A stretch of DNA of 64,000 nt from Spirochaetia bacterium. GTDB lineage: Bacteria > Spirochaetota > Spirochaetia > SZUA-6 > Bin103. The position numbers were made by a program, and so were the translations under genes. The notes below the pieces were generated by a model. That model saw only the letters and a program-made list of their open reading frames with translations. It had not been told where the DNA came from and made no database searches. The DNA is taken from NCBI GenBank assembly GCA_965203055.1, contig OZ241863.1:3520001-3584000 (forward strand). Direction: 5' to 3'. This document shows positions 20,926-54,946 of the stretch, one piece after another; within the stretch, counting starts at the first letter, position 1; each line of letters begins with the position of its first letter.

Positions 20926-21009
20926 GCCGGCGTGATGAAATTGGTAGACATGCCAGACTCAAAATCTGGTGGTGGCAACACCGTCTCGGTTCGAGTCCGA
21001 GCGCCGGCA
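20926..21009 (+). tRNA. tRNA-Leu (anticodon CAA)
   Basis: Acceptor GCCGGCG/CGCCGGC-A, D arm with TTGGTAGAC, anticodon arm CCAGA-CTCAAAA-TCTGG, long variable arm, CTCGG-TTCGAGT-CCGAG; CCA not encoded. Confidence 0.96.
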
Positions 21010-53069: not shown

Positions 53070-53202
53070 GGGTGCACGGTACCCATCGCCGCCGCGCCCG
53101 ACAACGTATCCGGGGTCAGCCGGCAGATTTCTCTCCGACCGGTGTAACCTTCCTGCGCGGAGGTTGTTCTACCTTATAGACACTGGGAGGGGGAAAGCCA
53201 AA

Positions 53203-53294
53203 ACCCGCGCTTGCGGGTACCTTAACCCCAGGTCTATCTGTTGCCATCCGCCGGCCCCTGGGGTTTCACCTCCTTTACCCAGGGGCCTTTCTTT
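53203..53294 (+). ncRNA. Candidate structured RNA, copy 1 (terminator-like hairpin with anti-SD loop)
   Basis: ACCCGC-GCTT-GCGGGT hairpin, then GGCCCCTGGG-GTTTCACCTCCTTTA-CCCAGGGGCC followed by TTTCTTT; 5' boundary approximate. Confidence 0.55.
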
Positions 53295-53413
53295 ACCCCA
53301 GGGCATCAGTCCAAATCTCTCCCAAAAAATCTCCTGGAGAAGCTAAAGCGGCGGCGATCAGCTGCCGATATTGTCAATGTCGGTGACGTTCCGCAAACGT
53401 CGTTTGCCTTCCA

Positions 53414-53505
53414 GCTTGCGGGAATCCGAGCACGTCCCCAAGCTCCACCGACTGCCATCTATGGCCCCTGGGGTTTCACCTCCTTTACCCAGGGGCCATT
53501 TTTCT
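53414..53505 (+). ncRNA. Candidate structured RNA, copy 2
   Basis: Identical 35-bp hairpin at 53463-53497 followed by ATTTTTCT; shares GCTTGCGGG, CCCCA and TGCCATC blocks with copy 1. Confidence 0.55.
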
Positions 53506-53525: not shown

Positions 53526-53554
53526 TTGTCCGCGCAACCGCCGCCTCCTATACT
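53526..53554 (+). promoter_or_regulatory. Sigma70-like promoter, near-leaderless
   Basis: TTGTCC-17 nt-TATACT, ATG 9 nt downstream, no SD. Confidence 0.65.
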
Positions 53555-53563
53555 CCGGGCGCG

Positions 53564-54946
53564 ATGGCCACTCACCACCGGAGCGCCGCCGCGGTAGGCG
53601 CCGCGCACCTGTACTACCTGCCGGTCGCCACCCGCGTGCCGCTGAAGTTCGGCCCCGAGGTCACCACCTCGGTGATCTGCGCGCGCGCCAGCGTCGAGCT
53701 GAGCGGCGCCGGGGCGCGCCGCGCGGTGGGCTGGGGCGAGACCCCGCTCAGCGTGCACTGGGTGTGGCCGAGCGCGCTGCCCTACGCCGAACGGCTGCAG
53801 GCGCTGCGCGGTCTCACCGAAGCGATCGCCCGCGCCTGGCCGCAACAGGCCGAGCCGGGCCATCCCCTGGAGATAGGCCAGCGCTTCATCCGCGGGCGCC
53901 TGCCGGCGCTGCTGGCGGATGCCAACCGCATGCGGCCACCCGGCGCGGAGGTTCCCTGGCTTGCCGCCCTGGTCTGCGCCTCCGCGTTCGACCTGGCCAC
54001 TCATGATGCCTACGGCAAGCTGCTGGGCTGCCCCACCTACGCCACCTACCGTCCCGAATACCTGGGGAGCGATCTGGCGGCGCTGCTCGACGATCCCGCC
54101 TTTGCCGGCCGCTACCCCTGCGACTACCTGAAGCCGGCGCGGCGCCGGCTCATGGCCTGGCATCTCGTCGGTGGCCTCGATCCGCTGGCGCCGGAGGAGC
54201 TTACCGGCGCGGAGCCGGACGACGGCTACCCGGTGCTGCTGGAGGACTGGATCCGCAGCGACGGTCTGCAGGCGCTCAAGGTGAAGCTGCGCGGCGACGA
54301 CGCCGAATGGGACTACCGGCGGCTGGCGGCGGTGGGAGCGATTGCCGCGCGCCATCAGGTGCTGTGGCTGGCGGCCGACTTCAACTGCACGGTGACCGAC
54401 CCCGCGTACGTAAACGAAATTCTCGATCGCTTGCGGGACTGCGAGCCACGAACCTACGCCTCGATCCTGTACGTCGAGCAGCCGTTTCCCTACGATCTGG
54501 AGCAGCACCGCATCGACGTGCGATCGGTAGCGGCGCGCAAACCGCTGTTCATGGATGAGAGCGCGCACGACTGGACGCTGGTACGGCTCGGTCGTTCGCT
54601 CGGCTGGAGCGGGGTAGCGCTGAAGACCTGCAAGACGCAGACCGGCGCCATCCTCAGTCTATGCTGGGCGCGTCACCACGACATGACGGTGATGGTGCAG
54701 GACCTGACCAATCCCATGCTGGCGCAGATCCCGCACCTGCAACTGGCGTCCCACGCCGGCACCATCATGGGCGTGGAGACCAACGCCATGCAGTTCTATC
54801 CGGCCGCGTCCGCGCCCGAAGCGCTGGTGCATCCCGGCCTCTACCGGCGGCGCGGCGGGCACGTGGACCTGGCGTCGCTGACGGGAACCGGCTTCGGCTA
54901 CCATATCGATCAGATTCGGCGCGCGCTGCCGGCCGCGGCCGTATAG
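53564..54946 (+). CDS. Enolase superfamily enzyme (mandelate racemase/muconate lactonizing-like)
   Basis: LKVKLRG (KxK), ADFN, YVEQP, MDESA metal ligands, ALKTCK. Confidence 0.88.
   Translation: MATHHRSAAAVGAAHLYYLPVATRVPLKFGPEVTTSVICARASVELSGAGARRAVGWGETPLSVHWVWPSALPYAERLQALRGLTEAIARAWPQQAEPGHPLEIGQRFIRGRLPALLADANRMRPPGAEVPWLAALVCASAFDLATHDAYGKLLGCPTYATYRPEYLGSDLAALLDDPAFAGRYPCDYLKPARRRLMAWHLVGGLDPLAPEELTGAEPDDGYPVLLEDWIRSDGLQALKVKLRGDDAEWDYRRLAAVGAIAARHQVLWLAADFNCTVTDPAYVNEILDRLRDCEPRTYASILYVEQPFPYDLEQHRIDVRSVAARKPLFMDESAHDWTLVRLGRSLGWSGVALKTCKTQTGAILSLCWARHHDMTVMVQDLTNPMLAQIPHLQLASHAGTIMGVETNAMQFYPAASAPEALVHPGLYRRRGGHVDLASLTGTGFGYHIDQIRRALPAAAV

Follow-up and report, generated by a model that had tools for sequence, protein, structure and literature searches.

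Two sibling small RNAs, each ending in a terminator hairpin whose loop copies the anti-Shine-Dalgarno (anti-SD) tail of 16S rRNA, are predicted on the plus strand of an intergenic gap in a Spirochaetia bacterium. The window, meaning the whole stretch of DNA analysed here, comprises 64,000 nucleotides (contig OZ241863.1, positions 3,520,001 to 3,584,000), and coordinates given below refer to the window unless marked as genome positions. From comparative sequence analysis, and with a probability that we put at roughly 0.6, the two RNAs would mask strong Shine-Dalgarno (SD) sites, chiefly those of mRNAs for exported solute-binding proteins, copy 1 being driven by an ECF sigma factor and copy 2 by FliA/WhiG. 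An earlier note on this DNA had proposed two paralogous sRNA genes on the plus strand, a proposal which is now supported by promoter motifs, a covarying stem, an invariant CCUCC, the polarity of the U-tail and neighbourhoods that vary between genomes. The element is likely to be the terminator hairpin of an uncatalogued spirochaete small-RNA family, and we have little doubt that the predicted RNAs are transcribed. The family covers much of the class Spirochaetia together with one family outside it, and with its promoter, sigma factor and seed defined it is directly testable.

The duplicated hairpin, its conservation and its distribution

As had been described, an identical 35-mer occurs twice with an offset of 210 bp (53253-53287 and 53463-53497), in a gap of lower GC content than the genome as a whole (60.3% versus 68.8%). 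The flanking genes are divergent, with a nucleoside deoxyribosyltransferase gene (Nuc_deoxyrib_tr) on the minus strand and an enolase-like gene (MR_MLE_C) on the plus strand. The latter, whose ATG is at 53564, is preceded by a sigma-70-like promoter that is not part of the RNA (TTGTCC-17-TATACT, 53526..53554, plus strand; 1 found as against 0.1 in shuffles). At six loci of relatives, the RNA and the nucleoside deoxyribosyltransferase gene are separated by a gene of 220-260 aa, which we take to encode an orotate phosphoribosyltransferase and which is absent at the corresponding place in the window.

The whole genome of 4,557,819 bases contains exactly 2 copies of the 35-mer, with up to 8 substitutions allowed, and the element is therefore not a REP-like repeat. 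Dispersed copies of this kind, which the earlier note had named as an observation that would count against its proposal, are thus absent, and an origin as a REP/BIME-type dispersed repeat was rejected both on this count and on the 1-4 covariance-model matches seen per genome of the family. The hairpin is near-invariant across the family, and it is thus not peculiar to this genome that its two 35-mers are identical. A partial echo of the 3' arm of the hairpin, seen by eye and in this genome only, follows the tail of copy 1 (53288-53303) and is perhaps a slippage remnant.

The terminator hairpin of copy 1 occupies 53253..53295 (plus strand), with the anti-SD loop at 53263-53277, where the predicted unpaired probability is 0.99-1.0, and a U-rich tail at 53288-53295. 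In copy 2 the hairpin lies at 53461..53505 (plus strand) around the second 35-mer, with the anti-SD loop at 53473-53487 and again a U-rich tail. The 10-bp GC stem, the 15-nt loop and the T-rich tract on the plus strand had been recognised correctly, with the addition that the stem of copy 2 extends to 12 bp. The relationship of the loop to 16S rRNA was also confirmed, as TCACCTCCTTT, a run of 11 bases, is common to the loop and to the 16S rRNA tail of the same genome. Folding z scores against shuffles were -2.4 and -4.6 on the plus strand and only -1.1 and -2.7 on the minus strand.

Copy 1 also has a 5' hairpin (53176..53237, plus strand) with a conserved outer stem and a variable interior; among 11 genus-level copies this stem has 9 pairs, 93.9% of its cells are paired and 3 pairs show a two-sided change. 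The linker motif CCAUC (53244..53248, plus strand) is largely single-stranded, with a predicted unpaired probability of 0.68-1.0. It is all that persists in the genus of three upstream words to which attention had been drawn as being kept in both copies. All three are indeed present in both copies here, but among 15 genus-level copies GCTTGCGGG is found in 2, both from this genome, CCCCA in 7 and TGCCATC in 5, whereas CCATC is found in 15/15.

A covariance model of the hairpin was built from 27 sequences, and covariation and loop conservation, both suggested as checks at the outset, were assessed on 102 model matches from 100 chosen loci. Two-sided changes were found in 10/10 stem pairs (156 cells), a level that was reached in 0/500 shuffles and that far exceeded slid controls, in an alignment that is fitted to the model and contains related, non-independent sequences. 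The stem sequence is conserved beyond what pairing requires. CCUCC was kept in 99/102 matches, two of the three misses being antisense hits, and the loop consensus is UUU-N-ACCUCCUUU. Among 159 elements chosen by loop motif, a U-rich tail lies 3' of the stem in 141 and an A-run lies 5' of it in 11. Genera differ in the genes that adjoin the element and in the orientation of these, with a convergent gene downstream in the sister genus, which argues that the element is not the leader of one fixed gene.

The earlier view that the RNAs belong to no recognised family is in keeping with Rfam searches, which returned no matching family. With Rfam 15 no family scored above the gathering threshold at the element, and the sole match in the window was a tRNA elsewhere; an E-value search gave 5 chance hits far below threshold, and 15 homologous loci gave 0 matches. 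A tRNA-Leu(CAA) gene is located at 20926-21009 of the window. A literature search, with subscription journals and uncurated motif tables outside its scope, returned no description of this RNA, and for Spirochaetes the consulted part of a review table has no more than 6 annotated sRNAs (PMC9029176). Three RNA runs contained small shares of the stretch and contigs of relatives with the hairpins, contigs being unable to show ends or strand. The relatives' hairpin contigs were 125-152 nt long at a depth of ~3 in one RNA run and 1-5 kb long in two others. A contig set that is seemingly independent spans both hairpins, although it may come from a run on the source sample.

The model matched 23/23 genomes of the family (E <=4.5e-15), 69/92 genomes of the order (E <=0.05, many of them weak), 90/150 genomes of the class Spirochaetia (E <=0.001) and 17/150 genomes of the phylum (E <=1e-5), the last including 10/14 of one family outside the class. 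When 185,579 species genomes were scanned with a pattern, 71 of the 80 titled matches listed bore spirochaete names, and no alphaproteobacterial titles were among these 80. A strict pattern was found in 13/401 genomes across the phylum, several by chance, and the loop pattern had 0 matches in viral contigs. One family (f9) had weak model matches only (17/40 at E <=0.01, best 2e-5), with 3 contexts resembling the element, and ECF motif counts there were at control level and uninformative. Matches of 24-44 bits at L151, L160, L165 and L204 stand in records titled Deltaproteobacteria or Saprospiraceae and may be explained by faulty binning, by chance or by a family that is more widely spread.

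Tandem copies are present in 4/11 genomes of the genus (G000, G003, G004 and G010). Homologues at L075, L076, L105, L115, L344 and L346 carry two or three consecutive anti-SD hairpins, a modular and cuckoo-like arrangement. At 3/5 loci checked (L084, L350 and L351), an anti-SD terminator directly follows tRNA genes, which suggests that these RNAs are cut from tRNA trailers.

Promoters of the two copies

The element had been taken to begin at 53203, which is ~60 bases too far downstream, and promoters of both ECF and sigma-28 type had been missed. The ECF-sigma-type promoter of copy 1 (53143..53168, plus strand) consists of a -35 box TGTAAC (53143-53148), a 16-nt spacer and a -10 box TGTT (53165-53168), and the predicted small RNA of ~120 nt extends over 53176..53295 (plus strand), its end being placed by the U-tail. 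When a promoter matrix was made from 68 homologous RNA promoters, with this genome's loci excluded, the copy 1 promoter had the best score genome-wide (27.7) and the site before the sole ECF gene came second (23.9). Across homologues, GT(A/T)AC-N16/17-(T/G)GTT was found within 160 nt upstream of 72 of 172 elements, against a shuffle mean of 1.6, with a spacer of 16 in 68 elements and of 17 in 4, and the promoters sit 20-110 nt upstream.

Sigma70_r2 has five matches in the genome, one of them being the ECF factor, whose gene has a zf-HC2 anti-sigma gene after it. The same ECF motif is present before 29/30 of the best-scoring ECF orthologue loci (shuffle mean 0.2). The ECF gene was found in 125/150 class genomes and in 86/90 of those with an RNA match, counts in which kin are not independent; among the 25 class genomes without it, 4 have an RNA match, two of them weak. 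Taken from this motif evidence, copy 1 very probably depends on the ECF factor. Such control is not family-wide, since in a count of 170 elements the motif is found at only 71 and others are sigma-70-like or stand after tRNA genes; at least 31 of the 99 elements without the ECF motif show a sigma-70-like pattern, which was run without a control. The copy of Pleomorphochaeta sp. DL1XJH-081 (L177), a cultured and non-pathogenic carrier, is among those without the motif. TGTAAC-type -35 boxes are given for ECF120 and ECF231 in the PMC7826278 supplement, the consulted passages of which contain no matching Spirochaetia ECF group.

The strict ECF motif has 10 matches in this genome, with 10, 10 and 11 in controls, and over 24 genomes of the family it has 140 matches as against 86 in controls, or ~two extra per genome. 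Twenty motif sites outside the RNA were picked by hand, and 11 of these lie before the ECF gene, 7 in long open frames and 2 between genes. Thus, the strict regulon looks like the sigma operon plus the RNA, although looser sites may be missed. Of the two intergenic ECF-type sites, L289 and L295, one lies before a tRNA with a CAT anticodon. A third site at which the motif is combined with an anti-SD sequence (genome 1124438) was set aside as chance, being antisense in an open frame and folding unlike the family.

In 27/29 ECF loci the -10 box is followed at 1-7 nt by an in-frame start codon, the distance being 6 nt in 13 of them, and most ECF orthologue mRNAs look leaderless. On the leaderless reading, copy 1 would start at 53175-53176, by the modal distance of 6 nt from the -10 box. 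The ECF gene of this genome departs from the rule, with its start 40 nt downstream. At six loci of the sister genus (L276-L279, L292 and L293), the -10 box of the ECF gene and its start codon overlap, and the autoregulatory transcript there, which would have no normal start, might serve the anti-sigma gene alone.

Copy 2 is preceded by a sigma-28 (FliA/WhiG)-type promoter (53344..53371, plus strand), with TAAAG at 53344-53348, 15 nt, and GCCGATAT at 53364-53371, from which a small RNA of ~125 nt is predicted (53378..53505, plus strand) with the same loop as copy 1. A decayed ECF-type promoter with a broken -35 box (53382..53405, plus strand) lies inside this predicted transcript. The ECF boxes of copy 2 are intact in G010 and G004, have a short spacer in G003, and here have ~6 bases missing. 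TAAAG-N15-GCCGA(T/C), with diverged spacers, was found at 4/4 tandem loci and at 0/11 single-copy loci inspected, the pattern having been tuned on these four tandem loci, which share descent. The match is the sole one in G004 and G010, 1 of 2 here and 1 of 9 in G003. A 7-bp stem (53379-53385 / 53446-53452) closes the 5' domain of copy 2 and persists at the 4 tandem loci, where all the changes in it are one-sided.

The consensus of sigma-28 promoters is of the TAAA-N15/16-GCCGATAA type, and a promoter of this type before copy 2 and a FliA/WhiG gene are both present in this genome. The FliA/WhiG factor scores above NCBIfam cut-offs (L124; genome 2378280-2385566), and the genes beside it are presumably flagellar export genes. 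Flagellin was not found in this 96% complete genome, and FliA/WhiG here is apparently a sigma-28 with a very small regulon. As judged from its promoter, copy 2 rather likely depends on sigma-28, with somewhat less assurance than attaches to copy 1 and the ECF factor. A tandem duplication within one genus would have been followed by the gain of a sigma-28 promoter in the second copy, which would now be losing its ECF one, and an identical seed would have been brought under a second sigma factor.

GC-rich hairpins come after the only other site of the tuned sigma-28 pattern in this genome (L364, genome 630985-631012), between two genes that we assume to belong to an ABC transporter operon, and this is possibly another small RNA. 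A repeat with a perfect sigma-28-type sequence and an internal AGGAG is present in 8 and 6 copies in G003 and G020 (L365, L367 and kin), and this repeated element is probably an insertion sequence.

Candidate targets and alternative explanations

AGGAGG was found before the start codon of 39/92 solute-binding genes (Pfam SBP_bac_1 and _5, with one match containing an internal stop omitted), as against 4/90 permease genes (the best-scoring 90 of 150 listed matches) and 181/2,631 called genes. For the 5-base SD core, the corresponding counts were 77/92, 13/90 and 726/2,631. A crude export-signal test agrees with a concentration of the SD on exported genes (50/385 versus 92/2,687). Strong SDs are expected on highly expressed genes, and those of the solute-binding genes do not show targeting.

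Fifteen homologues in other families have a second stretch complementary to the SD plus the start codon, and in several homologues the stretch complementary to the start codon pairs within the RNA itself. A search for the SD plus ATGAAAAA in four genomes of other families gave 20 matches, of which 3 are the RNA's own antisense and 1 is a 9-codon frame; among the remaining 16 genes, 9 encode Pfam solute-binding proteins. These matches would represent what an anti-SD loop could hit, and not that hitting happens. The possibility that CCAUC reads start codons was not supported, with CAT before the stem in 30/66 against 19.7 +/- 3.5 in shuffles, and with GATGG unenriched among SD genes (14/141 versus 235/2,021). 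Hfq and ProQ were not found in the genome, which encodes two KH_KhpA-B proteins. Repression through pairing of the loop with SD sites is probable, and the odds that solute-binding proteins are the main targets would be a little short of even.

The targets of the ECF- and sigma-28-driven RNAs could instead be a single mRNA or a handful, such as that of the anti-sigma gene in a feedback loop, which we consider improbable. Target sets of such limited size are found for most characterised sRNAs, and the CCAUC linker, invariant in the genus, could add specificity. However, the 5' parts of the RNA are wholly different between genera while the loop persists, and a ranking of targets by duplex energy, many top rows of which were miscalled starts, singled out no mRNA for long and specific complementarity. 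An SD is present before the anti-sigma gene in 18/27 loci, where the ECF gene is mostly leaderless, but that of this genome is weak; the anti-sigma mRNA is a possible specific target, and feedback through it could be of either sign.

A loop that mimics the 16S tail could also serve to titrate a protein which binds that tail, the KH domain of Era being an example of such a factor. The 11 bases shared with the 16S tail, the conservation of the stem beyond the needs of pairing, and the tandem forms with 2-3 hairpins (L075, L076, L105 and L115), which resemble protein sponges, would all suit this possibility, which we nevertheless rate as quite improbable: homologues have the SD-pairing part alone in common, show free variation 5' of ACCUCC and lack GA from the GAUCA of the 16S tail, and the complement extended to the start codon in 15 homologues fits pairing with mRNA.

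It is very improbable that the element is a plain intrinsic terminator that was copied along with its flanks and whose loop is functionless. Three homologues do stand right after tRNA genes, and a GC stem with a U-tail is what such a terminator would have, yet there is no plus-strand gene upstream here, dedicated promoters lie 20-110 nt upstream, and the loop is near-invariant while the stem covaries.

Least probable of all is a function of the minus strand, whether as the super-SD ribosome decoy that the earlier note had offered as an alternative, as a CsrA-binding GGA loop or as the leader of a short peptide of type I toxin-like character, because the AAAGGAGG of the minus-strand loop, although followed by an ATG 17-22 nt downstream in 16/16 genus-level copies, is at a spacing too long for a ribosome-binding site, the open frames have lengths of 3-426 codons and sequences with no relation to one another, promoter and U-tail are both on the plus strand, and CsrA was not found in the 96% complete genome. 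A type I toxin-antitoxin locus was rejected in the same way, there being no conserved short hydrophobic antisense frame among these open frames, as was a minus-strand sponge of the CsrB/RsmZ type, with one loop per element and no CsrA found.

Under the preferred reading, that of sibling RNAs which mask strong SD sites, envelope stress would release the ECF factor from its zinc-finger anti-sigma, and the factor would raise its own synthesis from a mostly leaderless mRNA beyond the reach of the loop. Copy 1 RNA, transcribed by the ECF factor, would reduce the load of exported proteins, the exposed terminator loop pairing with strong SD sites and blocking their translation. That the regulon apparently has two sites and that the sigma mRNA is leaderless suggests that control works through the mode of initiation. 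In a bolder form, which we hold to be doubtful, a class-wide stress response would have as its output almost only this RNA and the ECF factor's own, mostly leaderless operon; the RNA would throttle all strong-SD mRNAs, chiefly those of ~90 solute-binding lipoproteins, sorted by initiation mode and with no gene-specific seed, and the tandem pair would be a rewiring to a sigma-28 retained where no flagellin was found.

Comparison with known small RNAs

Sibling RNAs with C/U-rich anti-SD loops and differing regulation are known as AbcR1/AbcR2 in Rhizobiales and LhrC1-5 in Listeria, and AbcR represses many mRNAs of ABC solute-binding proteins. These RNAs belong to other phyla and have other loop sequences, and the element has no Rfam match; we know of no ECF/sigma-28 pair that drives either group.

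The cuckoo RNAs of Alphaproteobacteria (RSs0680/CcsR, C14 and A6) carry the loop CCUCCUCCC on each of 2-4 hairpins and, in the consulted parts of PMC4615179, resemble the element in having an anti-SD-like loop motif, variable stems, tandem paralogues and a stress-sigma promoter. Membership of this group was rejected, however, as the loop here reads ACCUCCUUU and not CCUCCUCCC, each predicted RNA has one motif loop and not 2-4, with multi-hairpin forms in some relatives only, and the distribution among the 80 titled matches listed, 71 of them spirochaetal, is not alphaproteobacterial.

MicA, RybB and MicL of E. coli constitute a non-coding branch within the sigma-E response that lowers the synthesis of abundant envelope proteins, according to the consulted parts of PMC9546586, and a non-coding arm of this kind is what is proposed for the element. 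These three RNAs are Hfq-dependent, whereas the element has no Rfam match and no Hfq was found in its host. Their seeds are located at the 5' end and not in a copy of the 16S tail within a terminator loop. Set against the ECF/sigma-E-dependent sRNAs as a class, the element has a promoter motif that is common to the autoregulated ECF gene and copy 1, and that is decayed in copy 2.

The element likely works in the manner of FoxI of Fusobacterium nucleatum, which, without Hfq, represses envelope proteins, among them the periplasmic binding protein MglB (PMC9546586, consulted parts). Like the predicted copy 1 RNA, FoxI is there described as a short RNA that has its ECF/sigma-E promoter in common with the autoregulated sigma gene, in a bacterium that lacks Hfq. 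In contrast, the regulon of its sigma factor exceeds 100 genes (PMC9546586, consulted parts), while the strict motif here marks ~two sites per genome; the function of FoxI is known from experiment while that of the element is read from sequence, and the element has no Rfam match. The spirochaete family is likely to be a variant of the sigma-E-dependent repressor RNAs, represented here by two siblings, each predicted to answer to its own sigma factor. If this holds true, the design of sigma-E plus repressor RNA seen in Proteobacteria and Fusobacterium would reach another phylum without Hfq, and would do so with a seed as simple as can be, namely a copied 16S tail.
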